Counted from the first letter of the stretch, positions 3,719-64,000 are shown. The stretch is 64,000 nucleotides of DNA from Thermoproteota archaeon (GCA_027492035.1 JAOZFT010000035.1:64001-128000), one strand, 5' to 3'. Notes: generated by a model not told the origin, from the sequence alone. Numbers and translations are program-made.

Positions 3719-3728
3719 TTTATTTTCC

Positions 3729-11491: not shown

Positions 11492-11510
11492 TTCTCACTC
11501 CCTCCAAGAA

Positions 11511-12619: not shown

Positions 12620-12775
12620 CCACTTTTTTGGAAGGGTTGCGAGTGGCTTTTTTTAGAGGACACTGTGAAGCATCTACGTGGAAGATTTTAAAAACATGTT
12701 CCAGCAGCAACCAAGTATCCACCTGCCACAAAACCGCATTCTTTACAACAACATAAACTTCTGTTCGGTTATTTA
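12620..12775 (-). mobile_element. Probable degenerate IS200/IS605 tnpB 3' remnant
   Basis: Minus strand reads PNRSLCCCKECGFVAGGYLVAA, then after a frameshift WNMFLK. This resembles the TnpB C-terminal CxxCG..DRD..AAxNI motif. Boundaries are approximate. Confidence 0.4.
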
Positions 12776-12870
12776 GTTTCTAAAAAGAAAAGAAGAAGTT
12801 CATTAATTTTCCCAGTATTTTTAAGGCTGTTGTTAACCCTTTCTGTAACTTTGTTTATCCACTAGAGTCT

Positions 12871-14565
12871 TCACTTTACTTCTATTTTTATTGGTTTGTT
12901 GTTTGGTAAATAAGTTAAGGGCACTTCAAAATTACTTAAACTCACTGTGTAGTAGTCCCGAAAAACTTTTTCCAAATCTTCCCTTAACTCTTCATCTTCA
13001 GTGTACTGGAAATTTGTCCAATAAGTTTTGCCATAAACTTCTTTAACCACTTCCCCATCCTTTACAACCACTTCTCCATCCTTTATAGTGTAAGCGGCCC
13101 TTGAAAAAGCTTTAATGATTTCATTGTAATTACCCCTATCCAGTTTTTCAGGGTTCAAATTGTAAATTGCAACGTCAGCGTCTGCTCCAACCCCTAAGTG
13201 GCCTTTCTCACTTAAACCTAGAGCCTTAGCTGTCCCAGCCCTTGTGCAAACAGCAACTTCGAACAGGCTATACTCTCTATCTATACTTGCTAACTGGGTC
13301 CTTGAATGCACAACTTTATGCACCTTCTGAATCATCTCTTCTCGGGCTTTCCTGCTCATCAACCAAGCTATAATTAAGGGGTAAAAAGTGAAAGGCCCTC
13401 CATTTGGGTGATCGGTTCCAATAAAGACTTTCCATGGTTCTTTAGTTAAAAGCATCAACTCCAGCCCTATAGCCCACTGAATGGTATTTACCGGGTTCTT
13501 CTTTTTGAAAATGTAAGGCACTATACCGCCGCTTGTTTCTAGCTCTGTATCTGCACCCGCCCATTTATTCTTTGTTAACAAATATAACCTGTATTGCCAT
13601 GGTCCGTCGCTTGTTATTGTTGTAGTGTTTGTGAATATAACTTGACCTATGCAAGTTGTAATGTGGCCATGTTTATTTAAGTATTCAGCTATTTCTGCTG
13701 CTCCTGAGCTGAAGTTGCCCCAGTTTTCTCCTGCGTAACTGTTGAATTGTGAATGAGCTATATGGAGTACATTCTTTCTTCCCTTTTTAGGTTTTATCCC
13801 TTCAACTGCTTTCATTGTTTCCAATGTTACTTCATAGTTTCCTGGTGAACCTAAGTTGTTACAGTGCACATGGTTTGTGTGAGGAAAATTTAGTTCTTCA
13901 TTCACTTTAGTTAGGTTTGTAACTATATCTCGGGGGGTTATGTCATACCCCTTTACTTTATCATCTAAGTTGTTTACATTCTTACCCCATTTCCATGTCT
14001 CTTGTCCCCCAGGGTTTACTACCTTTAATGAGTACCCTTTCACTGTTTTTAAAAGCCAGGCTATGAAATGTTTCAATTTCTCGTATTCTCCTTCCTTTAT
14101 GTATTTCAGTACAAAGTAGTTGTTTCCTACGCAAACGAATATTCCTTTATCTATCATTGGTGTATCTATTAGTTCCTCGTGTGCATGTTTTGCTTCTAAA
14201 GGTGTAACTGCTGGTTCGAAAACTGTCGTATAACCCATGGCTGAGTATCTATATCCTGTAACAAATGTTGACGGTAAAGAGTACCCTACTCCGCTTCTTG
14301 TGACGCTTGTTTTAGGTACAGGATCTGTTCTGTGGTCTTCTGGTCTAAACACTCTAGCTGAATTTAGTTTCCCTGCTATATGGCTATGGATATCTACTCC
14401 TCCAGGCATCACTGTTTTCCCTTCTGCATTTATTATTTCTGTACTGTTTCCAGTGAATTCTTCAACTATTTTGCCGTTTTCAATGTATATGTCCATTTTT
14501 TCTCCGTTGATTTTGTTTATGGGGTCGTAAACATATCCGTTCTTTATTATCATCCTACTTTTCAT
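12871..14565 (-). CDS. fwdA: Formylmethanofuran dehydrogenase subunit A (amidohydrolase)
   Basis: PGGVDIHSHIAG, KVVNPGG, HVHCNNLG, TDHPNGGPF. Confidence 0.96.
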   Translation of the reverse strand: MKSRMIIKNGYVYDPINKINGEKMDIYIENGKIVEEFTGNSTEIINAEGKTVMPGGVDIHSHIAGKLNSARVFRPEDHRTDPVPKTSVTRSGVGYSLPSTFVTGYRYSAMGYTTVFEPAVTPLEAKHAHEELIDTPMIDKGIFVCVGNNYFVLKYIKEGEYEKLKHFIAWLLKTVKGYSLKVVNPGGQETWKWGKNVNNLDDKVKGYDITPRDIVTNLTKVNEELNFPHTNHVHCNNLGSPGNYEVTLETMKAVEGIKPKKGRKNVLHIAHSQFNSYAGENWGNFSSGAAEIAEYLNKHGHITTCIGQVIFTNTTTITSDGPWQYRLYLLTKNKWAGADTELETSGGIVPYIFKKKNPVNTIQWAIGLELMLLTKEPWKVFIGTDHPNGGPFTFYPLIIAWLMSRKAREEMIQKVHKVVHSRTQLASIDREYSLFEVAVCTRAGTAKALGLSEKGHLGVGADADVAIYNLNPEKLDRGNYNEIIKAFSRAAYTIKDGEVVVKDGEVVKEVYGKTYWTNFQYTEDEELREDLEKVFRDYYTVSLSNFEVPLTYLPNNKPIKIEVK

Positions 14566-14589
14566 TTTTCTCTTCTCCTCCCCTTCATC

Positions 14590-15882
14590 TTAAATTCTTT
14601 TCAATATCTTTTCCATTATTTCTTCATCTGGCAGTACTCCTTCTTTCGGCTCTATTAGTTTTTTCAGCCTTATCGGTACCCCATCCATTCTATAAGCTGT
14701 TCCTTCTGTTTCTATCCCTGCTAAAGCGCAAGGTATAACTACGTCAGCTGTTAAAGAGGTCATACTTATTTTCGGGTCAACAACTATTGTGGGTATCTGT
14801 GTTAAATACTTGGCTGCTGGTGAAGGGAACGTTGCAACAGGATCTGACGCCACTATCAACGCTGCATCTACCTCTCTGTTTACTAGTAAATTTACTGCCG
14901 CGTATTCTCCCGGGTTATATCTTGGGTACCCTCTTGTAAAGTCTACGGCGTATGGATACCCTGTTTGCCAAGCTAAAACCATCCCTGCCCCTTTAACATT
15001 GAAATGTCCCCTCATAGGTATTACAACAAATCTTGTGTATTTATGTAAGTCTCTTACAAGGTTAAGCGTCGCTATTATGTTATAGTGTTTTCCTCTACTC
15101 ATTGTTAACCCAAGTCCGAAAAATATTACTCCATACCTACAGTTCTTCATTTTCTCCACAAGTTCCTTTATTTTATTCATTGAGACTCCTGCAACTTCTT
15201 CTGCATTTATTTTAGCTCCATTTACCAATGCCCTGATTACTGATAGAAGTTCAAAGTCTTTTCCTGGAGTTATTTTTAGGAACATGTCCGCTAATTTAGT
15301 TGTTCTCGTCTCCCTTACATCAACCGCTACAATGTATCTTTCTTTTCTCCCCTTTTCTGTGTACATTCCTTTCGGAAAAACCGAATACCTTACAAAATGG
15401 TTTAAGTGAGCTTGTAAGGGGTTGCATCCCCAGAAAATAACTAAGTCTGACCTGTTTTTTATCTCTCCAAGGGTTGCATGGATTTCGCCGGTTTCTTGGA
15501 AAGCTACAACTGTAGGGGCATGGCAGACAGTGGCTGTTTGGTCAATTATTCCCCCCGTTTTTTCAGCTATTTCCACGCATTTTCTTTGTGTTTCACAAGT
15601 TGTTGAACTTAAACCATAAATTAAGGGTCTGTCAGCATTCCTTAATATTTCAGCAGCTTTCTTTATGCTTTCTTCTAAGCTCACCCTTTCATGTTTCCCG
15701 TTAATTTTCATCATTGGGTAAGGTACTCTGTCTCTGTTATAATTTACAAACCTGCTTCTTGAAACTGTACAAGCTTTACTTAACGGCCTTATTTCTCCGT
15801 TTTCAACTTCGATTTCCAAGTTGTCGCACAGGCAGCCGCAAAATGAACAAACTACATCTTTAAACACTTGCTTCATTTTCAT
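14590..15882 (-). CDS. fwdB: Formylmethanofuran dehydrogenase subunit B (Mo/W-bisPGD)
   Basis: CSFCGCLCD 4Fe-4S motif, TVCH metal-ligand Cys, MRGHFNV, GTAYRMD. Confidence 0.95.
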   Translation of the reverse strand: MKMKQVFKDVVCSFCGCLCDNLEIEVENGEIRPLSKACTVSRSRFVNYNRDRVPYPMMKINGKHERVSLEESIKKAAEILRNADRPLIYGLSSTTCETQRKCVEIAEKTGGIIDQTATVCHAPTVVAFQETGEIHATLGEIKNRSDLVIFWGCNPLQAHLNHFVRYSVFPKGMYTEKGRKERYIVAVDVRETRTTKLADMFLKITPGKDFELLSVIRALVNGAKINAEEVAGVSMNKIKELVEKMKNCRYGVIFFGLGLTMSRGKHYNIIATLNLVRDLHKYTRFVVIPMRGHFNVKGAGMVLAWQTGYPYAVDFTRGYPRYNPGEYAAVNLLVNREVDAALIVASDPVATFPSPAAKYLTQIPTIVVDPKISMTSLTADVVIPCALAGIETEGTAYRMDGVPIRLKKLIEPKEGVLPDEEIMEKILKRI

Positions 15883-15897
15883 TAAACACCTTCCTCT

Positions 15898-16296
15898 TTA
15901 TTCATAGCCCTCAACTATTTCCTGAATAGTGAGAATTCTTTCACCTGATGCTTTATACACTTTAGCCTTTATTCCTTTAAAGGAAGGCATACTTATTCCT
16001 TCCGTATCCACGGGTGAAATTAAACTTGTCCAGGGACCGTAAGGCATGAAGATGATTCCGCGATCTATTTCCCTTGAAGCTTTACATTTCACAGCCACGG
16101 AACCGTACTCTGTTTCAACTTTCACAGTGTCTCCTTCCTTTACATTTATCTCACTCATGTCCTGTTGATTCATTTGGACAGTTGACAAGTGTTCAAAGTA
16201 TTCCTTTGAAGTTTTACCTATCTCTAAGGTTTCTCCTTGTTTATCTGTCCTCCCAGTTATCAAAACAGCTTCTAACTTCTTCATTTGATTCACCAT
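15898..16296 (-). CDS. fwdD: Formylmethanofuran dehydrogenase subunit D
   Basis: LITGRT..QG, FMPYGPW, MPSFKGI. Confidence 0.92.
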   Translation of the reverse strand: MVNQMKKLEAVLITGRTDKQGETLEIGKTSKEYFEHLSTVQMNQQDMSEINVKEGDTVKVETEYGSVAVKCKASREIDRGIIFMPYGPWTSLISPVDTEGISMPSFKGIKAKVYKASGERILTIQEIVEGYE

Positions 16297-16314
16297 CCAG
16301 ATCTTAGAGGAAAA

Positions 16315-16331
16315 AAGGTTTTACAAACCTT
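16315..16331. promoter_or_regulatory. Perfect palindrome just upstream of fwdD (operator candidate)
   Basis: AAGGTTT-TAC-AAACCTT, 19-35 nt upstream of the fwdD start. Confidence 0.35.
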
Positions 16332-16547
16332 CTCCTTAACGCGATTCCATTTTCAGCAGCTTATTCCCTAAACAAACTAAAATTTAAGTTAGATCTACTT
16401 TGCATGGGAACTTAAAAGCTTAAAAAATTTTACTTAATTTTCTTAACTCAGTCTTTCTTAATGGAATTTTTCCCAAACTTGTTCTTTGCTGGTATGTACT
16501 GGTAGATTAAGGTATTTCACCACAAATTACGTCTTGAAAGGTAATGA

Positions 16548-17531
16548 TTAAAGGAAGCTTATTGATTTCTTTATTGCTTCAGGATTTATTTTTCCTGCCC
16601 TGTAAACTTTGCCGTTCGCTTTGTTGAAAACTGTAATGGATGCTGGAGCGAAGAGGCTGACGTCCAGTTTGTAAAAATCGAAACCTGCTGCCTTATATGC
16701 TTCATAAAACAGTTTGCCATAGTCCTTTGATGTTGATGAGGGAGCTTTCTCCATTATGTCCCTCAACTTATCTTCATCAGAATAGTTTAGGATGTATTGG
16801 GTTTCTCCGCCATAGGAGAGTGAATCATTCCCCCTACTCATTGATTTTGTCGGGTCAGGATGGGTAGGCATTACAGGAGCTGAACCTGTCCCATGTAAAA
16901 CAGTTAAGGGGTCTAAACCCAAGAAATCAAGCCTGTAAAGGCCCGTTTCAACTATTCTCCCAGCTATCTGGGTTAAACCTGTTATACTTTTGTTTGAAAC
17001 AAGCACAAAATAAATGTTTTCGGGTTTAACATCACATTTCTCCTTAATAAGTTCAACAACTTGTTCATCAGGTTTCTTCTCAGTTTCAAGTACAAGTATT
17101 GCCACATCTGCTTCATCTTGATAGCCCAGTTTCTTAAAAAGCTTTTTCGGTTTCAAGGAAAGAGCTCGGGCAGGACCGGATCCTACGGCTGAAAAATTCT
17201 CTGTTTTAATGTTCCAGCCTGCAAGTTGGGAGGCAAGTAAAGCAATTGCTGGGTAATCAGTTAAAACATGAACAGTTGGAAGAGTTAATCCTCCGAAGTT
17301 TTTCTCGAAAAGTGAAGCCTTCCCAAGTCCACCTAAACATATTTCAGTCACTTTCAACCCTGTTAAATAACCCCCTTTTGCTTCAACACCGGCATCAATA
17401 ATTGTTGCTCCACTTCCAAGTTTCTCAACATACACATTAAAAAGGGAAGGGTTGTTAAGTATTTCTCTAACTATTTTAAGAGCTTCTTGGTTAACACTCA
17501 CTTTCTCCATCCTTTTCACCTTTAGAGCCAA
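16548..17531 (-). CDS. mch: Methenyltetrahydromethanopterin cyclohydrolase
   Basis: SQLAGW, GSGPARAL, GRIVETG, YGG, FYKLDVSLFAPA. Confidence 0.95.
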   Translation of the reverse strand: MALKVKRMEKVSVNQEALKIVREILNNPSLFNVYVEKLGSGATIIDAGVEAKGGYLTGLKVTEICLGGLGKASLFEKNFGGLTLPTVHVLTDYPAIALLASQLAGWNIKTENFSAVGSGPARALSLKPKKLFKKLGYQDEADVAILVLETEKKPDEQVVELIKEKCDVKPENIYFVLVSNKSITGLTQIAGRIVETGLYRLDFLGLDPLTVLHGTGSAPVMPTHPDPTKSMSRGNDSLSYGGETQYILNYSDEDKLRDIMEKAPSSTSKDYGKLFYEAYKAAGFDFYKLDVSLFAPASITVFNKANGKVYRAGKINPEAIKKSISFL

Positions 17532-17551
17532 GGAAAAGAGAAAAGGTTTTT

Positions 17552-18391
17552 TTAGGTTTTTTCAGCCCTAGGCTTCTCAATTAATTTCCTTTTCATCAAA
17601 ATTGTTCCGTCATCATAATGGGGTCTTCTCTGTACACTATCACCATACTTCTCTATCTCCCTTGCTTCATCAGCTAACTTCCCAGCAAACCTCATCAATT
17701 CATGAGCTGCTGAAACAATTAAAGTATACTTTTTCCAATCCTTTTCAATAAAGCACCCCTTAACAGTTAAGTCAGCAACTTTTTCAGCCATAATGTAGGC
17801 TGCGTAAGCCTTTGATTCGGCATAGGGATTTATGAAACCTGCCTTCTTCAATGCTTTGTTAACCCTAACCTTTATTTTTGGCGGCTCAGGTTTCTTCCCT
17901 TGCTTAACTTCATCAATCATTCTATCTATTTCCTCATAGATTAAGTTAAGAACTCCTGTAATAGCTAAAACCTTGATTAAGTCGGTGTTGTAAAGACTCA
18001 TTTCCACAGGGTCTAGAAACTCCCTCCTAGCCCCTATCATCGAATCAGCTGAAACAAAAACATACCCTGCACCCATATCCTCGAATTCCTCAATAGCTTT
18101 CTCAGCTGGTTTATCAGAAACAACAACTACAGGAATCCCTGAATCAATAAGTTTCTTAACAGCCCCTTTAGGCCCTTTTAAAGCTGCGTTAGGTGAGGTT
18201 AGTATACAGAAGTCAGGTTTAGCTTCAATCATTAGAGGAACGTTTGCATCCACCCAATCCTTGGTGATTTTCGAACCTGTACCTATAGTCACTGTCTGAA
18301 TATCTTGCCTTTCAGCCCGTTCGTCAAGTAAAAACTCAATCAAAGCTGCTGAACCCAAACTGCCCAGTTTCATAAAACCGACTTTAACCAT
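17552..18391 (-). CDS. mtd: F420-dependent methylenetetrahydromethanopterin dehydrogenase
   Basis: LDERAERQDI, SPNAALKGP, DSMIGARREFLDPVEM, AAHELMR. Start moved to ATG 18391 (MVKVGFMKLG); the ORF-track N-terminal extension looks non-coding. Confidence 0.94.
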   Translation of the reverse strand: MVKVGFMKLGSLGSAALIEFLLDERAERQDIQTVTIGTGSKITKDWVDANVPLMIEAKPDFCILTSPNAALKGPKGAVKKLIDSGIPVVVVSDKPAEKAIEEFEDMGAGYVFVSADSMIGARREFLDPVEMSLYNTDLIKVLAITGVLNLIYEEIDRMIDEVKQGKKPEPPKIKVRVNKALKKAGFINPYAESKAYAAYIMAEKVADLTVKGCFIEKDWKKYTLIVSAAHELMRFAGKLADEAREIEKYGDSVQRRPHYDDGTILMKRKLIEKPRAEKT

Positions 18392-18516
18392 TTCAAAACA
18401 CCTATTGTTTGAGGGGGAAGAATTGAAAATAAAAATCCTTTCCCTTTTTAAATTTTTTATTTGTTCAATTAAGAATGAAAGAAAAAAAGTCATTCCGTTG
18501 GTAAATTTAAAAGGGA

Positions 18517-18543
18517 AAGCCTTTTCTACAAAAGAAAAGGCTT
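18517..18543. promoter_or_regulatory. Perfect 11-bp inverted repeat between pmbA and mtd (operator or hairpin)
   Basis: AAGCCTTTTCT-acaaa-AGAAAAGGCTT, about 125 nt upstream of the mtd start. Confidence 0.45.
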
Positions 18544-18816
18544 CATTGTCCTTCAATGTCATTTAAGAAATGAAAATGGTAAAAATATTGAAAGGAAGCT
18601 GGCGAAACAGTGACCTTTTACTTTAATTAAAAAAGTGCAATTAATATGCAGCAATATTAAAATATTTTTACATAATCTTTGCTAACGGTTTTAAACATGT
18701 TTTTGCTTCTTTTGTTTTTTAGACTGTAGCGGCTTCTTTCAATTTTTGCGAAGCAAAGTTTTCTCAGCTTGTTTAAGTGCTAAAAATGGAGGAAGGGTGA
18801 GTTTGGGATTTTCCCT

Positions 18817-31043: not shown

Positions 31044-31667
31044 TTACAATGTTTCTTGGACGAACGAGTTCTCTTTCGGCAAAATCTCTTTTTTATAAAG
31101 GGTTAAGCAAGAATTGCAGCAGAAGTATAGTTCTCTGTCATCAACAACCAATTTAAGAGGTTCTTCCTTTATTTCCTTCCCGCAATATGTACATGAAACT
31201 TTAACTCCGAATCCTGGCCTTAATTTCGGCCCGTAATCCTCTTTAAGTGTTTTAACAACCACAAATGTGTTAACAGTCTCAATTCCTTCTATTTTACTCA
31301 ATTTATTCCTCAAAAACTCTTGGTAACCGGAGAAACTAGGTGTTGAAACTTTGAGGATTAAATCGAAAGATCCACTAGTCATATATAAACCGGTAACGTC
31401 CTCTATTCTGAGAATATCCTTAATAGCTTTGTTCATTAATGACACCTTTGTTTTTAACCCTATAAAGAAAGTTAATCCACCAATAAGTTTTTCAGGGTCT
31501 ATTTCTACCGTGAAACCTTTAATTACACCGAGAGATCTCAATTTTCTAACCCTATTCTTTACAGTAGGTAAGCTGACACCTGTCTTTTCAGCGATTTTTG
31601 AGAAACTCATCCTGGCATCTTTCTGTAAGAGAATCATTATCTCTATATCTAAATTATCAAGTATCAA
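31044..31667 (-). CDS. Lrp/AsnC regulator with C-terminal TRASH domain (CopR/CopT-like copper regulator)
   Basis: LQKDARMSF HTH, AsnC domain, CTYCG...YFCCNSC; divergent from copA. Confidence 0.88.
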   Translation of the reverse strand: MILDNLDIEIMILLQKDARMSFSKIAEKTGVSLPTVKNRVRKLRSLGVIKGFTVEIDPEKLIGGLTFFIGLKTKVSLMNKAIKDILRIEDVTGLYMTSGSFDLILKVSTPSFSGYQEFLRNKLSKIEGIETVNTFVVVKTLKEDYGPKLRPGFGVKVSCTYCGKEIKEEPLKLVVDDRELYFCCNSCLTLYKKEILPKENSFVQETL

Positions 31668-31916
31668 AACGGCTTCAACTCCTCATGAGGGAAAAGCTGG
31701 AAAAGACAAAATAAGTTCCTTATATATCTCTCTTTCGTTATTGAAAAAAAGTTCCCCTTTTTTTTCAAAAAAATAAATTTTTCTACTTCGGAAAATTATA
31801 TAAAAAAGGTTTTTTTCTCCTTTATTCTTCAGAAACTGAAAAGGAAGATTTTTAATCAGTAAAACACCTGTAGTAACTGGCGTAAAAGTAAACAAGGAAT
31901 ACTTAGAGGTAAAAAG

Positions 31917-34532
31917 ATGACAGAAAATCGTAAGAAAAATTTTGAACTCAAAATATCTGACATGTTTTCTGAAGCTCATGCTTTAGAAATTAAGAATACC
32001 TTACTCAGCCTAAATGGGGTTATCGACGCAAAAGTTAGTTTCAAAAATGGGACTGTTAAGGTGAAATATGACCCTACAAAATTAAAAATTGCTGACATAG
32101 AAAAAGCAGTAAAAAATGCTGGTTATAAAGTAATCAAAGAAGTTACTTTGAAAATTGGAGGAATGACTTGTGCCAGTTGTGTGAGGACAATTGAGAACTC
32201 CCTTAAAAAATTAGATGGCACCTTAAGTGTTAATGTTAACCTTAACGCTGAAGAAGCACATGTTGTTTATAACCCGGAAAAAACCACAGTAAAAAATATG
32301 AAGAAAGCTGTTGAGGAGACAGGTTACCACTACCTAGGGGTTAAGGGAGAAATAGAAAATTTAGAGGGAAAAGTAAAGAAAAGAAACTTAAGAGATAAAC
32401 GCAGCAAATTTCTTGTAGGTTTTGTTGTAGGCATTCCCTTAATGCTTCTCAAATATGTTCCAATTAACACTTCCTCTCTACTATCCTACTCAACATTAGC
32501 TGTTTCATTTCCAGCCTTTATTTATATAAGTTACCCCATTTTCGCTGCTGCATATCGTTCCATTAAGAATATGAACCTTAACATGGATGTTATGTACTCC
32601 ATGGGGATAGGCGTAGCCTTTACCTCCAGTATCTTAAGCACCTTTAACATACTTTCTAAAGAATTTTCATTTTACGATACAGCAATTCTTCTCGCTGCAT
32701 TCCTTACAGTTGGGCGATATTTGGAAGAAAAGGCAAAGGGGAAAACTTCAGATGCAATAAAGAAACTAATTAATTTGCAGCCACAGAAAGCCATTGTACT
32801 ACGTAACAGTAACGAAATCGAAATACCTGTAAAAAATGTTCAAATAAACGACATAATTCTAGTGAAACCGGGAGGAAAAATACCTGTAGACGGTGAAGTT
32901 ATTGAAGGCGAAAGCTATGTAGATGAATCAATGATTACAGGGGAACCTGTCCCTGTTTTGAAAAGGGAAGGGGACGAAGTTATTGGTGGAACCATCAACA
33001 AGAACAGCACAATTAAATTTAAAGCGACAAAAGTAGGGAGGGAGACTTTACTCTCACAAATCATAAAACTAGTTGAAGAAGCCCAAAGTTCGAAACCACC
33101 TATTCAAAGGATTGCGGATAAAGCAGTAAGGTATTTTATCCCTGTAGTGTTAACAGTTGCAATTTCTTCCTTCATTGGCTGGTACTTAATTTTACATAGC
33201 ACCTTGCTTTTTGCTTTGACCTGTATGATTTCAATACTTGTAGTGGCATGTCCTTGCGCTCTTGGACTTGCTACACCTACAGCTGTCACTGTAGGTATTG
33301 GACGTGGAGCAGAGCTGGGTGTCCTTATTAAACAGGGTGAAGCTCTTGAAAGATGCGAGAAACTGACAACTGTGGTATTTGACAAAACCGGAACCCTCAC
33401 AAAAGGTAAACCTGAAGTTACAGATTTAGTGAGTGTAGGAATTAATGAAAAGAAACTATTGAAGTTAGTGGCTAGTGTTGAAAAAAGTTCTCAGCACCCG
33501 TTAGCTGAAGCTATTGTGAAAAAAGCTCAGGAAGAAGGTTTAAAGCTTGAAGAAAGTGAAAACTTTGACACATTTGAAGGAAAAGGGGTAACAGCAAAAA
33601 TAAATGGGAAAGAAGTCCTTGTGGGAAGTAAAAAGTTCTTAAAGGAAAGGAATATCCCCTGCCCTGAAGAAATTGAAGAAAAATTGTTTCAACTTGAAAA
33701 TGAAGGAAAAACAGTGATTTTAGTTTCGTTAAGTGGCAAAATCTGCGGTGCAATAGCTGTTACTGACAGATTAAGAGAAAAAGCCAAGGAGGCAATAAAA
33801 GAACTTAAGAAAATGAAACTTGATGTTGTTATGATTACGGGTGACAACGCCAGAACTGCCTACACCATTGCTAAACAAATAGGGATCAAAAAGGTATTAG
33901 CAGAGGTCCTGCCGCAAGATAAAGTCAAGGAAATAAAGAAACTTCAAGAAAAAGGGGAAGTAGTGGCTTTTGTAGGTGACGGAATAAATGATGCCCCTGC
34001 ACTTGCAAGTGCAGATGTAGGTATTGCAATAGGTAGTGGTACAGACGTAGCAATTGAAACAGGTGAAATAATACTTGTAAAGGATAACCTTTTAGATGTT
34101 GTTGCAGCGCTGCAGCTAAGTAAGAAAGTAATGTCAAGGATAAAACAAAACCTGTTCTGGGCTTTCGCGTACAACGCTGCCTTGATTCCTATGGCAGCCG
34201 GGATACTACATCCCCTCTTAAAAGTTGATTTTAGGCCTGAATTCGCAGGACTTGCAATGGCAATGAGCTCTGTAACAGTTGTAACACTTTCTCTTCTGCT
34301 ACGGAAATATGTACCACCTATAAAGAAAAATTTTGGAACCGTGAAAAAACATGTGAAGGAGGCGAGAAAAATGGTTGTGGACCCTGTTTGTAAAATGGTT
34401 GTAGATGAAGAAACAGCAAGATTTAGAAGTGAATATAGAGGTAAGACGTACTACTTCTGCAGCTTAAGTTGTAAGGAAGCATTTGATGAAAACCCTGAAA
34501 AATATGTTGGCAAGGTTCTTTCGCACAAGTGA
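31917..34532 (+). CDS. copA: Cu(I)-translocating P1B-type ATPase with C-terminal YHS/TRASH domain
   Basis: GMTCASC HMA, TGE, CPC, DKTGT, HP, GDGIND, YN and MAMSS transmembrane ligands; DPVC...YYFCS..C tail. Confidence 0.95.
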
Positions 34533-50260: not shown

Positions 50261-52012
50261 TTGAAGAGCCAAAAAAAACTTTTAAATCATTTACATTTCT
50301 TTAAAATATCACGGAACTACTTAAAAAGATTTGAAGTAAGTCTACTGATCCTAGCGGCTTTAACAGGTATTGGAGGAGGATTTGGAGCAGTTATTTTCCG
50401 TTTACTCATTACAGGCTTTACAACCCTTTCATTTCAACATGGCAGTAAAATACTGAACTTTCTAGGAAATTATTACATCATCTTTATTCCTGCAATAGGT
50501 GGTATGGTTGTAGGATTCCTTGTAAATCGTTTCGCAAGAGAAACTAAAGGACATGGGGTACCAGAAGTAATGGAATCCATCATGTTGAAAGGTGGAAAAA
50601 TAAGGCCAAGGGTTGCAATAATAAAGTCCCTTGCCTCCTCTATTTGTATAGGTTCTGGTGGTTCCGTAGGCAGGGAAGGGCCAATTGTACAAATAGGTTC
50701 AGCGATAGGTTCAACGCTGGGTCAAATATTTAAGTTAGGTGAGGAGCAAGTGAGGAACCTAGTTGCCTGTGGGGCTGCTGCTGGAATTGCAGCAACTTTT
50801 AATGCACCAATTGGGGGTGTGCTTTTCGCCTCAGAGGTAATACTTGGTGAATTTGCTACTACAACCTTTATAACTATCGTGATTTCCTCAGTAAGTGCAA
50901 CCATTATTTCAAGGATATTTCTAGGAAACAAAGTTTCTTTCCTTATTCCAGCTTATTCTTTTGTAAACCCTATTGAAATACTTTTTTATGTGATATTAGG
51001 TGTTTTAGCAGCTTTTATAGGTCTGTTATTCACTAAATTACTATATAAAGTTGAAGATGGTTTTAATTTGTTGAAAATATCGGACTACCTGAAACCAGTC
51101 ATTGGTGGGTTAACAATCGGTATCATAGGTTTCTTCTTTCCACAAATTTTCGGTGTAGGTTATGAAACAATAGAACTTGCCCTTGCAGAAAAACTTGCTT
51201 TAGGCACAGTAATCTCACTCATGTTTCTCAAATTATTAGCTACTTCAATCACTCTTGGATCAGGTGGTTCAGGCGGAATATTTGCACCCTCTTTGGTTAT
51301 AGGTTCAATGCTTGGCAACTTCTTCGGCACCTTCATCCACTCTGCATTTCCGGAAATAACTGCGTCTCCAGGGGCGTATGCACTGGTTAGTATGGCTGCT
51401 CTTTTTTCAGCAGCTGCTCATGCCCCCATAACAGCTATAATAATTCTGTTTGAAATGACAGGGGATTACAAAATTATTTTGCCTTTGATGGCAACCTGTG
51501 TAATTGCAACCCTAATAACTAGAAGAATGTCAGAAGGAAACATTTACACTTTGAAACTTATAAGGAGAGGAATCCATATATTAGATGGAATGAGTCTTAA
51601 AGTGAGGAAAACTTTAACAGCTTTCAAAATAAAAGATATAATGACAAAAGATGTGGTCTCAGTAACACCCAACTTATCTCTTGAAAGAATTTACAGCTTA
51701 ATCTTGAAAACCGACCACCATGGTTTCCCAGTTATTGAAAATGGTAAATTAGTTGGCCTAATTACAGTTCATGACCTTGTAAAGGTTCCTAAGGAGAAAT
51801 GGGGAAAAATGAAAGTAAAGGACGCTATGGTTAAACATGTTGAAACAATCTCAACTGAAAATTCACTTTATGACGCAATACGTTTAACGACGAAGAAAGG
51901 GGTTGGTAGATTAATTGTTGTTTCTAAGGATGACCCTAACAAAGTGGTAGGCATAATAACTAAAACAGACTTGGTGAAGGCTTATAATACAGCTCTTCTA
52001 GTTACATACTGA
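50261..52012 (+). CDS. ClC-family chloride channel/transporter with CBS pair (paralogue 1)
   Basis: GHGVP, GREGP, FNAPIGG, GIFAP, two CBS domains. Confidence 0.93.
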   Translation: MKSQKKLLNHLHFFKISRNYLKRFEVSLLILAALTGIGGGFGAVIFRLLITGFTTLSFQHGSKILNFLGNYYIIFIPAIGGMVVGFLVNRFARETKGHGVPEVMESIMLKGGKIRPRVAIIKSLASSICIGSGGSVGREGPIVQIGSAIGSTLGQIFKLGEEQVRNLVACGAAAGIAATFNAPIGGVLFASEVILGEFATTTFITIVISSVSATIISRIFLGNKVSFLIPAYSFVNPIEILFYVILGVLAAFIGLLFTKLLYKVEDGFNLLKISDYLKPVIGGLTIGIIGFFFPQIFGVGYETIELALAEKLALGTVISLMFLKLLATSITLGSGGSGGIFAPSLVIGSMLGNFFGTFIHSAFPEITASPGAYALVSMAALFSAAAHAPITAIIILFEMTGDYKIILPLMATCVIATLITRRMSEGNIYTLKLIRRGIHILDGMSLKVRKTLTAFKIKDIMTKDVVSVTPNLSLERIYSLILKTDHHGFPVIENGKLVGLITVHDLVKVPKEKWGKMKVKDAMVKHVETISTENSLYDAIRLTTKKGVGRLIVVSKDDPNKVVGIITKTDLVKAYNTALLVTY

Positions 52013-54008
52013 AAAAGAATTTTTTACATGAATCTCGTCTGAAATACAACAAACGGTTCCTCCTTTTTTAATTTATTTTCAAAAATAGGTTTGAAATATA
52101 TAATTTTTTTACATATAAAATTAAAAAAAGAAATTTTCTTAAATATCTTTGGTCCTTCACATGTTTTTTCATAAATTTTTCAAAGGTAGCAAGGAGGAAA
52201 AGTGAAGCCTTTCTTCTGACTTTCCTAAAAACTAAGTAAAAAGGGTGTAGCAAAACGTTCATCTATAAAAAAGTGAAGAAGGTTCTCTCAACAAATAAAC
52301 TTTTGGTTTTAAGTATTTTAACAGGTTTAGTGTCAGGATTGGGGGCACTTCTTTTCTTTTATATGCTTCATTTTTTTTCAAGCTACTTTATAGGTTACCT
52401 GGCAGGTTTTAAAGTTCCAAGTCCAGGTGGTGAAACTTCACCCTTTCACATCAATGGTGAAACAACCTATAAACCCTGGCTTCTTGTTATTTTACCAGCA
52501 ATTGGTGGACTACTTTCTGGGGTAATAGTTTACTCCTTTGCACCTGAAGCTGAGGGACATGGAACCGACGCAGTTATTGAATCCTTCCATAAATTCTCTG
52601 GTTACATTAGGAGTAGAGTACCTGTAATTAAATTGATTGCTTCTGCGTTGACTATAGGTACAGGTGGAAGTGCAGGCAGGGAAGGACCTATTGCCCAAAT
52701 AGGAGCTGGTTTTGCTTCATTTATCTCAAACTTTTTGAAATTAACAGCTAGAGAAAGGGAAATCCTAGTTGTTTGTGGAGCTGCTTCCGGAATAGGTAGT
52801 ATATTTAGAGCTCCCTTCGGCGGGTCCATTTTCGGCATAGAAGTGCTCTACAAAAGAGACTACGAGGTTGATGCCTTTATCTACTCAGTTATTTCTTGTT
52901 TTGCAGGTTATGGCGTGTTTGCTTCGGTTGTAGGTTGGAAACCTATTTTTATAACCCCCTTCTACACTTTCTCACCTAAAGAATTACCTCTTTTCGCTTT
53001 GTTGGGGATAATAAGTGGTGTAATAGCAATTATTTATGTCTCAGTTTTTTACGGGCTTAGGGATAAATTCTTTAGAAAAATGAAGATCCCGAATCATTTT
53101 AAACCAGCTATAGGTGGTATAATGCTTGGTTTACTCGGGTTCTTCTTCCCTCAAGCAATAGGGACAGGCTATGGATGGATGCAGCTTGCAATTAACGGTG
53201 AATTAGGGCTAAGTCTTATGCTAGGGCTTATTTTCGCTAAAATTTTCGCTACTTCCTTCACCATTAGTTCAGGTGGAAGCGGTGGGGTTTACGCTCCTTC
53301 TCTTACAATAGGCGCCATGGTTGGTGGCTCTATCGGAATGCTCCTTAAACAGGCATTTCCAGCCATTATAACTAACCCAGGAGTTTTTACATTAATAGGT
53401 ATGGCTTCATTCTTTTCAGCAGCAGCTAAATGTCCAATTTCACCAATCATTATGGTTTCTGAAATGACTGGAGACTACAATGTTTTAGTTCCAGCTATTT
53501 TAGCTTCAACAATCTCTTACTTCTCTTCAGGTGAATACACCATATACGAAAAACAAGTAATTTCCAAGACACACTCCCCTGCCCACACAGACAGGATCAT
53601 AAGTGAACTTGGGAGAAGAGCATATAAAGTAACTGACAAAATAAAAAAGGCATTGATAGCTTTCAAAGTTAAAGATGTAATGACTAAGAAAGTATTTTCT
53701 GTGAACCCTGACTCCACAGTGGAAGAATTATATGACTTAATTTTAAAAACTGATCATCACGGTTTCCCTGTGATTAAAAACAATAAACTTATAGGTTTAG
53801 TTACTATTCATGAACTCAGATCATTTCCAAAAGAGAAATGGAAAGAATTGAAAGTGGAAAATGTTATGGTTAAACATGTTAAAACTATTTCGGCTGAAGA
53901 ACCAATTTACGATGCAATAGTGAAAATGGCAAGGGAAGGGGTTGGTAGATTAATTGTTGTTTCTAAGGATGACCCTAAAAAAGTGGTAGGCATAATAACC
54001 AAAACAGA
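51897..54008 (+). repeat. Near-identical 73-nt segment shared by the two ClC genes (51897-51969 and 53936-54008)
   Basis: Manual alignment gives 71/73 identical nt, offset 2039. Confidence 0.88.
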
Positions 54009-54051
54009 TTTAATGAAAGCATACAATACAGCTCTTCTTGTTTCCATTTAA
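52273..54051 (+). CDS. ClC-family chloride channel/transporter with CBS pair (paralogue 2)
   Basis: GHGTD, GREGP, FRAPFGG, GVYAP, two CBS domains. Confidence 0.93.
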   Translation: MKKVLSTNKLLVLSILTGLVSGLGALLFFYMLHFFSSYFIGYLAGFKVPSPGGETSPFHINGETTYKPWLLVILPAIGGLLSGVIVYSFAPEAEGHGTDAVIESFHKFSGYIRSRVPVIKLIASALTIGTGGSAGREGPIAQIGAGFASFISNFLKLTAREREILVVCGAASGIGSIFRAPFGGSIFGIEVLYKRDYEVDAFIYSVISCFAGYGVFASVVGWKPIFITPFYTFSPKELPLFALLGIISGVIAIIYVSVFYGLRDKFFRKMKIPNHFKPAIGGIMLGLLGFFFPQAIGTGYGWMQLAINGELGLSLMLGLIFAKIFATSFTISSGGSGGVYAPSLTIGAMVGGSIGMLLKQAFPAIITNPGVFTLIGMASFFSAAAKCPISPIIMVSEMTGDYNVLVPAILASTISYFSSGEYTIYEKQVISKTHSPAHTDRIISELGRRAYKVTDKIKKALIAFKVKDVMTKKVFSVNPDSTVEELYDLILKTDHHGFPVIKNNKLIGLVTIHELRSFPKEKWKELKVENVMVKHVKTISAEEPIYDAIVKMAREGVGRLIVVSKDDPKKVVGIITKTDLMKAYNTALLVSI

Positions 54052-60422: not shown

Positions 60423-60607
60423 TTCTGGGAAGTGTTTTCGCAAAAGGTTTTACTTTCCTATTGTTTCCAACCTAAATAAACTTCCTAATTCTCCTCTTAG
60501 AACATAGCGCAGATGTTGAAGCCTCTTTATACACAGTTAAATACAGATGCACTTTAAAGGTTTTATTTTTGAATTTTTTTTAGAAAAAAAGTTTCTAAAT
60601 GGTAATG

Positions 60608-60624
60608 AATGAATAATATTCATT
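60608..60624. promoter_or_regulatory. Palindrome upstream of the hydrogenase structural genes (operator candidate)
   Basis: AATGAATA-A-TATTCATT, about 65-80 nt upstream of the small-subunit start; AT-rich, so a chance occurrence is possible. Confidence 0.3.
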
Positions 60625-60688
60625 TTTTTATTGTAACATTAAACTTAAAAAAGGGAAGTAAGTTTCTTTTAGCTAAAAACAGAAGGAA

Positions 60689-61672
60689 GTGAAGCTGGGA
60701 ATGAGCGAAATAAAAATCGAGAAAATTAATGCTATTTGGTTGCAGGGACAGGGGTGTACCGGCTGTACAGTTTCTTTAACTGGTGCTACACATCCAAGTC
60801 TACCTGATCTATTGACAGGGTTTCTTCCGCAGGCAGCAGGTGTCGCTTTAGTTTTTCACCCAACCATTATGCTTCCCCATGGTGAAGAAGCCATAAATGT
60901 GTTAGAATCCGGATTAAAGGGGAAATTAGACCCTTTCGTCTTAATACTTGAGGGAGCAATACCGAATGAAGAATTAGCTGAGAAAACAGGTGGTTACTGG
61001 TGTATGGTGGGAGAAAATGGTGAAGGGAAACCTTTAACTCTCAATTACTGGGTGGACAAACTGTCTGAAAGGGCAGCTGCGGTTGTGGCAGTGGGTACCT
61101 GTGCCTGCTATGGAGGAATCCCTCATGGAAAACCTAACCCAACAGGTTCAAAGGGTCTTTTAAGTTACTTAGGCAGAAACTGGCGAAGCAAATTGAACCT
61201 TCCAGTGATCTGTATCCCCGGGTGTCCAGCTCAAGGAGAACATGTAGCTGAGGTGTTAGCTCATCTTGTCCTTACAGCTAGAGGATTTCTTCCAATTCCT
61301 GAACTTGATGAATTCCACAGGCCCAAATTCATATTTAAGGCAACTGCTCATGAAAACTGTCCTAGGGCTGGGTTCTTTGCTGAAGGAAAGTATTCTGAGG
61401 AATTTGGCGAACCTTATTGCATGGGACTACTAGGATGTAAAGGACCCATAGTTCACTGTGACGTGCCTAAGAGAGGTTTCGTTGAAGGTGTGGGTGGATG
61501 TACAACTGTGGGATCCATATGTATTGGATGTACTGAGCCTGAATTTCCAGATGAACCATTGTCCCCGTTCTTTAAAAAAGCTCCTCCTGGAGTTTTTGTC
61601 TCTGAAACATTTGGAGATATCAAGGGTAAACTTTATGCTTTACTTCACAGATTAAAGTCGAGGAAGATATAA
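60689..61672 (+). CDS. [NiFe]-hydrogenase small subunit, group 1h/1l-like, no Tat signal
   Basis: GCTGC, GTCACYGG, PGCP, HENCPR..C..LGCKGP..C..GGCTTVGSICIGC. Confidence 0.92.
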   Translation: MKLGMSEIKIEKINAIWLQGQGCTGCTVSLTGATHPSLPDLLTGFLPQAAGVALVFHPTIMLPHGEEAINVLESGLKGKLDPFVLILEGAIPNEELAEKTGGYWCMVGENGEGKPLTLNYWVDKLSERAAAVVAVGTCACYGGIPHGKPNPTGSKGLLSYLGRNWRSKLNLPVICIPGCPAQGEHVAEVLAHLVLTARGFLPIPELDEFHRPKFIFKATAHENCPRAGFFAEGKYSEEFGEPYCMGLLGCKGPIVHCDVPKRGFVEGVGGCTTVGSICIGCTEPEFPDEPLSPFFKKAPPGVFVSETFGDIKGKLYALLHRLKSRKI

Positions 61673-61687
61673 AAGGAGGATATAGAA

Positions 61688-63436
61688 ATGGTTGAGGAAA
61701 AAATGAAAAATGAAGTACTTATCGAGCCCCTTACAAGGATAGAGGGACACTTAGCTATACATGCTGTTCCTGATCTAGAAACGAAAAAATACAAAAATGC
61801 TCACAGTTACGCGGTAATGTTTAGGGGGTTCGAGATAATTTTGAAGAATAGAGAACCTGCCGACGCTATATGGATAACTCAAAGGATTTGTGGGGTTTGC
61901 CCTGTCCCGCACGCTGTAGCATCTGTAGAAACTGTAGATATGACGTACAAAGCCCCCCCAACTCCTTTCAGCATCGCTGTGAGGAACTTTGTCCATTTGT
62001 CTGAACAGCTTTATGACTCGCCATTGGGATGCGGAATACTTGAGGGCCCGGATTACTCCGAACCAGTAGTTAAAAGGTTTAATCCTGAATGGTGGAGTTC
62101 TGCACAAGAAACAAAAGCTGAACATTCAGATTTACATGGATACTCCACAATTGCAGACATAATGACTGCTCTAACTCCATTATCAGGCTCTTTATGGCTA
62201 AAATGTTTACAGATATCAAAACTAGGTAGGAAAATGGCTTCCCTTTTCGGGGCTAAGCATCCTCATGTAGGCACTTTTGTTCCTGGCGGTGTAGGGAAAA
62301 CTATCACAGCTACAGACCTAGAAATGTTTGCAGGTATGCTTTCCCAACACATAGCCTTTTCTAAAGAATTTGTTCCAGCCTTTGACGACCTACTAAATTT
62401 CCTAATAGGTATTGGTTACGAAGAAGCAGGTGCGAGGGCAGCTAACTTAATAAGCTACGGAAGCTATGAAGACCCTCATTCTTACAACGCCAAATATGAA
62501 GACATGTCTAAATGGGGAGAAAAGAGGAAAGTGACACCTGGTGTAGTAGTAAACAGAAACTTAATAACTACAGACTTGGTTGAAATAAACGTAGGCATAA
62601 GAGAATTCATCACTCATTCTTACTACAATGAATGGGATGGAAGAGAAGTAGAGAGAGATCCCTTAGGCAATGAAATAGCTGCAGAGCATCCTTGGAACAA
62701 AGAAACAATACCTAGGCCAGAGCCCTCTAAACAATGGAACGGGAAGTACTCTTGGGGTACAGCCCCCAGGTGGCATGATTGGAAAAAACATATTGATGGA
62801 GGAATATATACTTTGGAAGCAGGGCCTATAGCAAGGATGTGGACAACTGCCCAAGCTAGGAAAGTTCCTGAATCTACAGGGAACAGTTTAAAATTTACTC
62901 TCCCCAAAGTCACTGTTGTAACTGGTAAAGTTGCTGAAGAAATGACTTTCGAATGGAAAATTCCTGAGAAGGTGAATGCCATAGAAAGAATAAGAGCTAG
63001 AGCATATTATCATGCCTACAGTGCATACGTGGCTTACAACATGTTAATTGAAGCTTTGGAAATGGTTAAAAAGGGAGAAATTGAGATGTGGAATAAGTAC
63101 AGGAGACCAAGGGAAGGAATAGGTGTAGGAATGATAGAAGCCATGAGAGGAGGTGTAGCCCACTGGTGCATAATGAAAAACGGAAGAATTCACAGGTATC
63201 AAATCATAACTCCAACAGCTTGGAATGAATCTCCTAGGGGACCAAACAATGAGCCTGGACCTTATGAAGAAGCAATTATAGGTACTCCAATAACAGAAGC
63301 TATAAGTTCAAGCCTTAACGGCATAGATGCGGCAAGAGTTGTAAGAAGCTTCGATCCATGTCTAGCCTGCACAGTCCATGTTTACAATGGGAAAAAGAAA
63401 ACAGTAAATGAAATTTCTCCATACTTCAACCTCTAA
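61688..63436 (+). CDS. [NiFe]-hydrogenase large subunit, group 1h/1l-like
   Basis: TRIEGH, RGFE, L1 QRICGVCPVPH, L2 SFDPCLACTVH followed by a cleavable C-terminal tail. Confidence 0.94.
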   Translation: MVEEKMKNEVLIEPLTRIEGHLAIHAVPDLETKKYKNAHSYAVMFRGFEIILKNREPADAIWITQRICGVCPVPHAVASVETVDMTYKAPPTPFSIAVRNFVHLSEQLYDSPLGCGILEGPDYSEPVVKRFNPEWWSSAQETKAEHSDLHGYSTIADIMTALTPLSGSLWLKCLQISKLGRKMASLFGAKHPHVGTFVPGGVGKTITATDLEMFAGMLSQHIAFSKEFVPAFDDLLNFLIGIGYEEAGARAANLISYGSYEDPHSYNAKYEDMSKWGEKRKVTPGVVVNRNLITTDLVEINVGIREFITHSYYNEWDGREVERDPLGNEIAAEHPWNKETIPRPEPSKQWNGKYSWGTAPRWHDWKKHIDGGIYTLEAGPIARMWTTAQARKVPESTGNSLKFTLPKVTVVTGKVAEEMTFEWKIPEKVNAIERIRARAYYHAYSAYVAYNMLIEALEMVKKGEIEMWNKYRRPREGIGVGMIEAMRGGVAHWCIMKNGRIHRYQIITPTAWNESPRGPNNEPGPYEEAIIGTPITEAISSSLNGIDAARVVRSFDPCLACTVHVYNGKKKTVNEISPYFNL

Positions 63437-63906
63437 AACTCCCTTCTTACTTTTTCCGATATAATCCCTACAACTTTATTAACTGCTTCTCTAACTTTTG
63501 AGGAAAGCCCTACCCCAAACGATAAGTCACCAGGTTGGCATCCTATCAAAAAAACTTTTTTAGGAGATTTCTCTAACGCTTTACTAAGCCTTAAAATTTC
63601 TTTCGGCCTAAGTTCATGGAAGCTCACAGTGATCATTTCAAAAAGGTCAGACTGACTAGCTTTCTCAGGTTTTACTTCTGAAATAAATATTTCACCTGGG
63701 GTTCCACCAAAATCCACAGCGTCAACAATTACTACTTCATCGAAATCCCCTATGTCATACAAAAGATCTAAACTGCTTGTTCCATATTCCCTAATTACTA
63801 CATGTTTCGGAAACTCAATTTTAGATAATTGGTTCACTACTTCGCATCCGAAACCGTCATCTCTCCTTAGTTTATCTCCTACTCCAGCTATTAATACTCT
63901 CTCCAT
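63433..63906 (-). CDS. Hydrogenase maturation protease (HyaD/HybD-like)
   Basis: GVGDKLRRDDGFG, VDAV, SFHE, IGCQP; start moved to ATG 63906 (MERVLIAG). Confidence 0.92.
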   Translation of the reverse strand: MERVLIAGVGDKLRRDDGFGCEVVNQLSKIEFPKHVVIREYGTSSLDLLYDIGDFDEVVIVDAVDFGGTPGEIFISEVKPEKASQSDLFEMITVSFHELRPKEILRLSKALEKSPKKVFLIGCQPGDLSFGVGLSSKVREAVNKVVGIISEKVRREF

Positions 63907-64000
63907 GATTTTTCCTCGCTCCAAATTTCTCTTCAAAATAAGCTTTGAGTATAGAAAAAGGAAAATCAAAGAATTCAAAAACTTTCTTAAAACCTTTTTG

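Follow-up and report, generated by a model that had tools for sequence, protein, structure and literature searches.

A [NiFe]-hydrogenase locus in an archaeon with H4MPT genes belongs to a lineage related to, but separate from, canonical group 1h

What might an enzyme resembling the aerobic [NiFe]-hydrogenases of group 1h, with their high affinity, be doing in an archaeon whose genes suggest a life without oxygen? The question is raised by a pair of hydrogenase genes on a 64,000-nucleotide stretch of DNA from a Thermoproteota archaeon (GCA_027492035.1, JAOZFT010000035.1:64001-128000), the whole of which is hereafter called the window. A preliminary description, made from the sequence alone, had likened the small subunit (SSU) and large subunit (LSU) to the enzymes of groups 1h and 1l and had proposed a possibly new, deep-branching anaerobic sister subgroup. 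Our analysis indicates that the enzyme belongs to a lineage that is widespread, found mostly in anaerobes and related to canonical group 1h while remaining separate from it, and that classifiers lump into 1h. We consider it likely that the locus encodes a complete and apparently functional cytoplasmic [NiFe]-hydrogenase, most likely working in H2 uptake, in an anoxic archaeon of the tetrahydromethanopterin (H4MPT) and Wood-Ljungdahl type.

The predicted genes confirm, at the level of sequence, that the locus is an intact two-subunit [NiFe]-hydrogenase with a full maturation gene set. The SSU combines a NuoB-like domain (PF01058) with the long group 1 C-terminal domain (PF14720). The LSU has both CxxC nickel-iron motifs intact, QRICGVCPVPH at L1 and DPCLACTVH at L2, contains no selenocysteine (L2 reads DPCLAC) and ends in DPCLACTVH followed by an 18-residue extension. 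In the textbook account of [NiFe] maturation the Hyp proteins build the metal centre, after which an endopeptidase removes the C-terminal extension of the LSU; Pfam and NCBIfam matches place a hypABCDEF set directly upstream of the SSU-LSU pair, the two subunit genes being 15 nt apart from stop to start. All the motifs on which the preliminary description had been built are present in the translations, namely HGYSTIADIM, TTDLVEINVG, DPLGN..HPWN, KYSW..APRW, VPKRG..GVGGC..VGSICIGC, the L1 and L2 motifs and the proximal CTGC.

Among all PDB chains the best match to the LSU is the group 1h enzyme of Cupriavidus necator (5AA5_C, E 4.4e-132 over residues 12-564), with the next at 5.5e-50, and the best match to the SSU is chain 5AA5_A of the same enzyme (E 7.9e-82), with [NiFeSe] enzymes next at 8.4e-53; Huc (group 2a), Frh, Mvh and the enzymes linked to nicotinamide adenine dinucleotide (NAD) score far more weakly. 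When references from annotated plasmids are used, the LSU is 37.7-42.3% identical to five 1h enzymes and the SSU 41-44% identical to four, as against LSU identities of 24-28% to 1c/1d references and to the Alteromonas, Clostridium, Natrarchaeobaculum and Mesorhizobium enzymes. Neither subunit reaches an NCBIfam equivalog cut-off. These comparisons support group 1h as the nearest characterised group, as judged from the proteins, and the likeness to Hhy (1h) enzymes noted in the preliminary description is borne out.

The family around the query is large. At E<=1e-10 there were 2311 LSU homologues among 8000 scored candidates, the best 120 of which are 58-100% identical to the query, and 1974 SSU homologues among 4529 scored. 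In a library of representatives at 50% identity P0039 (61%) stands for the cluster that contains the query, and single representatives come next: P0121 (52%), P0122 (44%) and P0123 (40%), the last of which bears classic 1h motifs. The few named sources of clade members are metagenome-assembled genomes (MAGs) of Korarchaeota/Thermoproteota, Bathyarchaeota/Bathyarchaeia, Altiarchaeales, ‘Nitrososphaerales’, Heimdallarchaeota, Thermoplasmata, Planctomycetota and Dehalococcoidia, and these hosts come mostly from lineages known as anaerobes. The L1 signature CGVCP is present in 118 of the 120 LSU homologues.

Phylogenies were computed with FastTree on 105 full-length LSUs (26 clade proteins thinned at 72% identity, 8 named proteins, 57 representatives, 12 labelled plasmid references, the query and the LSU of the Bathyarchaeota locus L001) and with IQ-TREE under LG+C20+F+G4 on a 53-row subset, for which support is given as ultrafast bootstrap (UFBoot)/SH-aLRT. 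Representatives were excluded if L1 or L2 was missing or if their length fell below 430 amino acids (aa), four being added back; the labelled references are those of the plasmids and not the HydDB set, and groups 1l and 1m were compared by published description only. In the IQ-TREE analysis a supergroup comprising the query clade, 1h and two unlabelled lineages is supported at 100/99. Within it, canonical 1h (six rows, from Cupriavidus, Methylocystis, Mycobacterium, Streptomyces and Streptantibioticus together with P0123) forms a 100/100 clade with a stem of 0.87, and the query clade of 24 rows forms another at 100/99, joined by P0121 at 95/88; FastTree recovers the same groups from the 105 rows. 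A maximum-likelihood check of the kind that the preliminary description had suggested leaves the query outside canonical 1h. The nearest named LSU is that of a Korarchaeota/Thermoproteota MAG (P0009, 71% identity), which groups with the query at 94/83, and two Altiarchaeales proteins (P0068 and P0094, from IMC4), each 61% identical to the query LSU, lie inside the 100/99 clade on a different sub-branch. This reciprocal monophyly argues firmly that the enzyme is related to canonical 1h without being a member of it, although the branching order inside the supergroup is soft.

Two other relationships were considered and set aside. The novel archaeal group 1 clade of Hydrothermarchaeota (PMC6759336) carries cytochrome b genes. 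A regulatory, 2b-type hydrogenase was rejected on the grounds that the query has an LSU extension and a dedicated protease, and that the Mesorhizobium reference, which we take to be group 2-like, shares only 25% LSU identity with it. Regulatory 2b-type hydrogenases lack a cleaved LSU extension.

The cluster ligands of the SSU were read from an alignment of the query with four 1h, two 1d and four other small subunits, and their conservation was scored over 121 rows, made up of 119 homologues together with the query and L001. In the query every one of the 12 ligand positions is filled: C23, C26, C138 and C179 (alignment columns) at the proximal cluster, H221, C224, C244 and C250 at the distal cluster, and four Cys, C257, C271, C278 and C281, at the medial cluster. 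C23 is kept in 119 of the 121 rows, the other two being gaps, and each of the remaining ligands other than position 26 is kept in all 121. The four 1h references likewise have the complete medial four-Cys set, and in the 1d enzymes the C271 column is Pro. Because the medial cluster has four Cys ligands, the SSU is predicted to carry three [4Fe-4S] clusters, as the preliminary description had anticipated.

Position 26 (window 60764-60766) behaves differently: of the 121 clade rows, 79 carry Cys there and 40 carry Asp. On a 123-row SSU tree its state changes at least nine times, at least six of these changes being forced by well-supported branches; two Asp-type proteins fall within the query's nearest seven-row group, and a 27-row sub-branch that is entirely Asp includes a Dehalococcoidia protein. 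In group 1h the replacement by Asp of the second Cys of the proximal CxxC is reported as a characteristic trait (PMC7174314); the query lacks an Asp at the proximal cluster. The preliminary description had used CTGC, along with L1 and L2, to set the enzyme apart from 1h, and all three do differ in the query, but with Asp in 40 of the 121 rows CTGC fails as a mark of the clade. The natural Cys/Asp variants, at a ligand thought to give 1h enzymes their O2 tolerance, constitute ready-made test material. An extra Cys at SSU residue 105 (61001-61003), in GYWC, is kept in 120 of the 121 rows, and the four 1h references have A, C or S there.

Some variation was also seen in the LSUs. The terminal His of DPCxxCxxH, the usual protease cleavage site, is present in the query (63377-63379) and in at least 64 of the 120 close LSUs, and is Gln in 49 of them, including that of L001 (DPCLACSIQ). 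Three proteins of 590-616 aa (P0124, P0130 and P0140), 33-36% identical to the LSU over nearly its full length, lack the L1 Cys pair and end at RSFD[PVS] right before the expected L2; they may be Cys-less hydrogenase-like paralogues or genes cut by an in-frame stop.

Where in the cell would such an enzyme work? A signal for twin-arginine translocation (Tat), with a membrane or periplasmic location, is typical of groups 1a-1g and 1i-1k. Such a peptide is impossible on the query SSU because the reading frame, counted from the preceding stop, offers no start codon before 60689, which lies only 16 residues ahead of the conserved W. The start is probably the ATG at 60701, giving 323 aa, because a 100%-identical database protein (P0270) has that length, and only 12 residues would then precede the W. 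RRxF is absent from the query and present in the 1d, Alteromonas and Natrarchaeobaculum small subunits of the same alignment, and a search for RRx[FLIV] in the first 60 residues found it in none of the 120 SSU homologues. No transmembrane segment was detected in either subunit, the 19-residue Kyte-Doolittle mean never exceeding 1.41. The SSU keeps an amphipathic C-terminal helix that aligns to residue 327 of 5AA5 and lacks the terminal EPKWRH..TTGY tail of the 1h small subunits.

The neighbourhood of the genes further separates the query from 1h. In all four annotated 1h loci the SSU and LSU genes are followed by a short gene (annotated as NifU-like in two of the loci and as hypothetical in the remaining two), then by DUF5947, DUF6084 and a gene for a protein of ~410-480 aa, and after these by the protease. 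When 16 accessory proteins of 1h loci were used as tblastn queries, no match to the window or L001 scored better than E 0.03, and in a control search 11 of the same 16 matched the unannotated 1h locus L006; genes for DUF5947, DUF6084, the NifU-like protein and the protein of ~410-480 aa are accordingly absent from the window and L001. In both of the latter the LSU gene is followed directly by a convergent protease gene, and the layout of L001, SSU-LSU-convergent protease-hyp, is that of the window. The idea of a sister lineage therefore holds, because the query sits in a separate 100/99 clade and the 1h accessory genes are missing.

The host itself can be read in part from the window, which encodes FwdABCD-like genes, Ftr, Mch and Mtd, together with archaeal TrmB and TRASH regulators, a fair reading of which is that the host would be an archaeon with an H4MPT C1 pathway. 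The family match of Mtd begins at residue 59, indicating an N-terminal extension or a mis-set start.

On the reading that we prefer, the enzyme would stay in the cytoplasm as a small-large (SL) heterodimer, possibly as (SL)2 as in 5AA5, and H2 would be oxidised at the Ni-Fe site, the electrons running through the three predicted [4Fe-4S] clusters, leaving at the surface-exposed, His-ligated distal cluster and being handed to a separately encoded acceptor, cytoplasmic or membrane-associated, that would feed CO2 reduction or energy conservation. Uptake for H4MPT-dependent CO2 reduction is the most economical and most likely use of the enzyme; both uptake itself and its connection to the Wood-Ljungdahl pathway are inferences, because no acceptor gene stands beside the enzyme.

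Several observations weigh against this account or limit how far it reaches. A search of the genes beside the enzyme found no acceptor, cytochrome, FrhB-like, flavoprotein or ferredoxin gene, in keeping with the preliminary description, which had noted that membrane anchor, cytochrome b and flavoprotein partner are all missing from the locus, and the comparison of partners rests on one related locus, L001 (the one confirmed of 18 pattern matches to a single-LSU query). The all-[4Fe-4S] relay with normal Cys ligation that is predicted here would also suit an enzyme that works in both directions or evolves H2, and after 1h the SSU matches [NiFeSe] enzymes best. The absence of a Tat peptide and of an anchor, which the preliminary description had listed among the unusual features, is real but is no departure from 1h, since a bacterial group 1h enzyme is reported to be without signal peptide or transmembrane anchor (PMC7174314), and the difference between CTGC and CDGD does not, on the aligned sequences, define the clade. 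In the tree the first split, between the query clade and 1h with the two unlabelled lineages, has only 88/82 support against an outgroup of other group 1 and group 2-like rows, and forcing the query clade together with canonical 1h costs 11.2 log-likelihood units, an arrangement that the approximately unbiased (AU) test does not reject (p 0.099). The intermediate lineages (the P0122 and P0128 groups) could not be assigned to 1l, 1m or any other group. A tblastn search of plasmids with P0122 and P0128 matched canonical 1h only, at 33-41% identity, and a database search with P0121, the outlier closest to the query clade, returned only generic NiFeSe_Hases clusters of mixed taxa. That the host is anaerobic is suggested by gene content, and its affiliation is uneven: the nearest named LSU is the Korarchaeota protein mentioned above, the nearest named Mch comes from Bathyarchaeota at 61% identity, and the closest Mch overall, named or not, has 67% identity. 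Nor is the enzyme new to print: Korarchaeal members already appear in the literature under ‘group 1h’, and those of Altiarchaea under ‘group 1’.

A rather unlikely alternative to uptake is a bidirectional or mainly H2-evolving cytoplasmic enzyme that would act as a redox valve for surplus reductant during fermentation. Three predicted [4Fe-4S] clusters with ordinary Cys ligation would suit such a role, and after 1h the SSU resembles [NiFeSe] enzymes most (214 bits for NF045520; 8.4e-53 for 4KL8), which are good H2 producers. Many of the named clade hosts (Bathyarchaeia, Korarchaeia) are moreover described as fermenters (PMC10667645). However, no ferredoxin- or NAD(P)H-linked module lies alongside the genes, the characterised relatives in the supergroup, those of 1h, are all reported as uptake enzymes (PMC7174314), and Korarchaeia already possess [FeFe] and group 4g enzymes to which H2 evolution has been assigned (PMC10667645). 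The same study speculated, from similarity to TIGR03295, that the Korarchaeal ‘1h’ enzyme reduces coenzyme F420 (PMC10667645), so that here the enzyme would substitute functionally for Frh in the H4MPT pathway, for which the window supplies the F420-dependent Mtd. The query LSU does match TIGR03295, but at 77.9 bits against a cut-off of 392.5 and over residues 7-122 only, its N-terminal part; nearly the same segment (residues 9-123) also matches the model of the F420-non-reducing VhuA, the SSU ends in the long group 1 domain, and a scan of 52 open reading frames (ORFs) in the window turned up no F420-binding subunit of the FrhB type, so that we regard F420 reduction as improbable.

Nor does the label 1h, taken literally, fit well. 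A laterally acquired, ordinary aerobic high-affinity enzyme of the Hhy/AH type, scavenging trace H2 for O2 respiration, would explain why 5AA5 is the best solved relative, why HydDB-type classifiers call the Korarchaeal relatives 1h (PMC10667645, PMC10469681), and why the Tat-less SSU, the four-Cys medial cluster and the VPKRG..GVGGC insertion are held in common. Yet the query falls outside the 100/100 canonical clade, differs in L1 and L2, has no proximal Asp and lacks the accessory genes; Fwd and further genes of the H4MPT type are seen in the window but an oxidase is not, and the published Kor-8 hosts are described as being without antioxidant genes (PMC10469681), all of which renders this explanation very improbable indeed. 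A final alternative concerns the acceptor. In L001 an operon on the minus strand (2-8205) encodes nuoA, B, C, D, H and I and two antiporter-type subunits, diverging from the hydrogenase genes at a distance of ~790 bp; its NuoD-like subunit is without the nickel-binding CxxC. Genes for NuoEFG and FpoF are absent from the 9 kb of contig available upstream of the hydrogenase genes, a contig whose end falls within the antiporter-type genes. The hydrogenase could then be the H2-input module of a headless complex-I-like (Nuo/Fpo/Fqo-type) complex, forming an energy-conserving oxidoreductase between H2 and quinone or a methanophenazine-like carrier. Fqo membrane components are reported from Kg_8, the Korarchaeal lineage with a ‘1h’ enzyme (PMC10667645), and bacterial 1h enzymes are described as membrane-associated through an unknown partner (PMC7174314). 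On the other hand, mere proximity proves little, the case comes from a single locus in which ~790 bp separate two oppositely oriented gene sets, and the 60 kb of the window upstream of the enzyme contain nothing Nuo-like. We therefore assign a low probability to such docking and treat the nuo neighbourhood of L001 as a hint towards the acceptor.

Uptake by a cytoplasmic enzyme thus remains the reading that we favour, and a more far-reaching version of it can be formulated. The clade might be a functionally distinct, unnamed subgroup of group 1, the equivalent, in the cytoplasm of anoxic hosts, of the aerobic 1h, 1l and 1m scavengers of atmospheric H2, and perhaps the stock from which they arose; it might provide the missing entry of H2 into the Wood-Ljungdahl pathway of uncultured Bathyarchaeia, Korarchaeia, Altiarchaea and their relatives through a new type of acceptor, perhaps by headless complex-I-like docking, with the Cys/Asp switching recording repeated adaptation to O2. 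Taken as a whole this seems decidedly unlikely to be correct in all its parts.

Even the more modest conclusion has consequences for how these organisms are understood. Bathyarchaeia, Korarchaeia and Altiarchaea are abundant subsurface archaea for which H2-dependent acetogenesis or CO2 fixation has been proposed without an identified route for the electrons of H2. The classifier label ‘group 1h’ imports a role in aerobic scavenging of atmospheric H2 that is ill-suited to such hosts, and recognition of a separate lineage would correct metabolic reconstructions of subsurface archaea. The gain is nonetheless incremental, as fold, cofactors and maturation are textbook and clade members have already been published. 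It should also be noted that 1h-type and clade SSUs are found under the name ‘hydrogenase expression protein HypE’ (genes of L002-L005, P0291 and P0358), and that some LSUs, including P0009, are named ‘cytochrome C’, which conceals the enzyme in annotation-based surveys.

The features of the window are collected in Table 1. From 50 kb to its end the window holds only two ClC channel genes, the six hyp genes, the genes of the two subunits and the protease gene, and it ends 22 nt past the protease ORF, so that gene context here means the upstream side plus the protease. The protease probably starts at its Met25 (63906), where the preliminary description had ended the locus, because the family match begins at residues 26-29. 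Searches of the window found no Rfam family and no tRNA, and its G+C content is uniform at 0.33-0.40. Away from the hydrogenase, a gene cluster at the start of the window looks like a module for anaerobic oxidation of glycerol-3-phosphate or lactate, and a regulator-ATPase pair probably serves copper homeostasis.

Table 1. Features of the 64,000-nucleotide window in order of position.
Feature	Coordinates	Strand	Domains and remarks
HdrD/GlpC-like CCG Fe-S protein, GlcD-like FAD (flavin adenine dinucleotide) oxidase, FGGY (glycerol-type) kinase, DUF1667, pyridine-nucleotide disulfide oxidoreductase, DAO/BFD flavoprotein	2-6805	(-)	
ORF, 237 aa	8063-8776	(-)	No Pfam match at E<=1e-5
H4MPT C1 module: FwdC-like (GXGXG), Ftr, FwdA-like amidohydrolase, FwdB-like molybdopterin subunit, FwdD-like, Mch, Mtd	10661-18562	(-)	
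Lrp/AsnC regulator and P-type heavy-metal ATPase	31044-34532	divergent	Regulator with C-terminal TRASH domain; ATPase with two HMA and one YHS
ORF, 458 aa	48696-50072	(+)	No Pfam match at E<=1e-5
Two tandem ClC-type channel paralogues	50261-54051	(+)	Paired CBS domains each; immediately upstream of hyp genes
hypD, 371 aa	54139..55254	(-)	PF01924 HypD, E 2e-143
hypE, 343 aa	55385..56416	(+)	AIRS and AIRS_C; the hypF-adjacent gene of L001 has the identical domain pair
hypF carbamoyltransferase, 779 aa	56450..58789	(-)	Acylphosphatase, zf-HYPF, Sua5/YrdC, HypF_C, HypF_C_2
hypC, 73 aa	58838..59059	(-)	PF01455 HupF_HypC, E 2.4e-30
hypB nickel GTPase, 228 aa	59333..60019	(+)	PF02492 CobW/HypB/UreG, E 3.8e-23
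hypA nickel metallochaperone, 129 aa	60033..60422	(+)	PF01155 HypA, E 7.6e-25
A+T-rich intergenic spacer, 266 bp	60423..60688		Upstream of SSU and LSU genes; presumed promoter (role inferred)
[NiFe]-hydrogenase SSU, 327 aa	60689..61672	(+)	PF01058, E 9e-22; PF14720, E 2.9e-23
[NiFe]-hydrogenase LSU, 582 aa	61688..63436	(+)	PF00374, E 5.8e-74
Hydrogenase maturation endopeptidase	63433..63978	(-)	Convergent with LSU; PF01750, E 1.3e-20; TIGR00072, 122.6 bits, cut-off 47.45

How, then, does the enzyme compare with systems already described? One HydDB ‘group 1h’ enzyme is reported from a Korarchaeal lineage encoding the Wood-Ljungdahl pathway, Kg_8 or genus QMVU01 (PMC10667645), and Kor-8 enzymes have been assigned to ‘1h/5’ in hosts argued to be strict anaerobes (PMC10469681); both papers remark on the paradox of 1h in an anaerobe. 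Their host type is like ours, an archaeon with the H4MPT Wood-Ljungdahl pathway, and although these reports file the enzyme under 1h, it is placed here outside canonical 1h, with P0009 as a candidate for the published protein. A ‘group 1’ [NiFe]-hydrogenase is described across Ca. Altiarchaea and was read as an adaptation to H2-rich fluids, that is, as uptake (PMC8755723); that this enzyme belongs to the query family is suggested by organism names only. The HydDB paper itself cautions that distant 1h members may differ in function. Literature searches, from which the spelling ‘1 h’ with a space can escape, found no paper naming the anaerobe clade as a subgroup of its own, no link between ‘group 1h’ hydrogenase and Bathyarchaeia or Altiarchaeota, and no match for ‘group 1h’ with a proximal 4Fe-4S aspartate.

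Among characterised enzymes, those of the [NiFeSe]/group 1a type (PDB 4KL8 and 1CC1) share with the query SSU the ordinary CxxC of the proximal cluster and Cys as the fourth medial ligand, although their match to it is much weaker than that of 5AA5 (8e-53 vs 8e-82). They are periplasmic, whereas the query enzyme is not exportable by Tat. The aerobic high-affinity groups 1l and 1m are described as close relatives of 1h (PMC9561532). In 1l (Hyl), five small transmembrane genes are reported to lie between the subunit genes (PMC9561532), which in the query are 15 nt apart; 1m (Hhm) is described from Actinobacteriota only, with a CooC-type ATPase, TPR, BirA-like and DUF1059 proteins as accessories (PMC9561532), but no such domains occur among the 52 scanned ORFs, and the named clade members are archaea, Planctomycetota and Dehalococcoidia. 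The closest system is the 1h/5, actinobacterial-type enzyme (HofKG of Cupriavidus, 5AA5, with its counterparts in Mycobacterium, Streptomyces and Methylocystis), which leads the next match by ~80 orders of magnitude in E-value. From it the query differs at L1 (QRICGVCPVPH, in the clade QRxCGVCPxPH, vs SRICGICGDNH), at L2 (DPCLACTVH vs DPCLPCGVH) and at the proximal motif (CTGC vs CDGD in four of four 1h references and CTCC in 1d), the 1h versions of L1 and L2 having been seen in 5AA5 alignments and P0123, and CDGD in the four 1h reference loci. With it the query shares adjacent SSU and LSU genes, a Tat-less SSU with a four-Cys medial cluster and the VPKRG..GVGGC insertion, and an LSU with a C-terminal extension and a dedicated protease.

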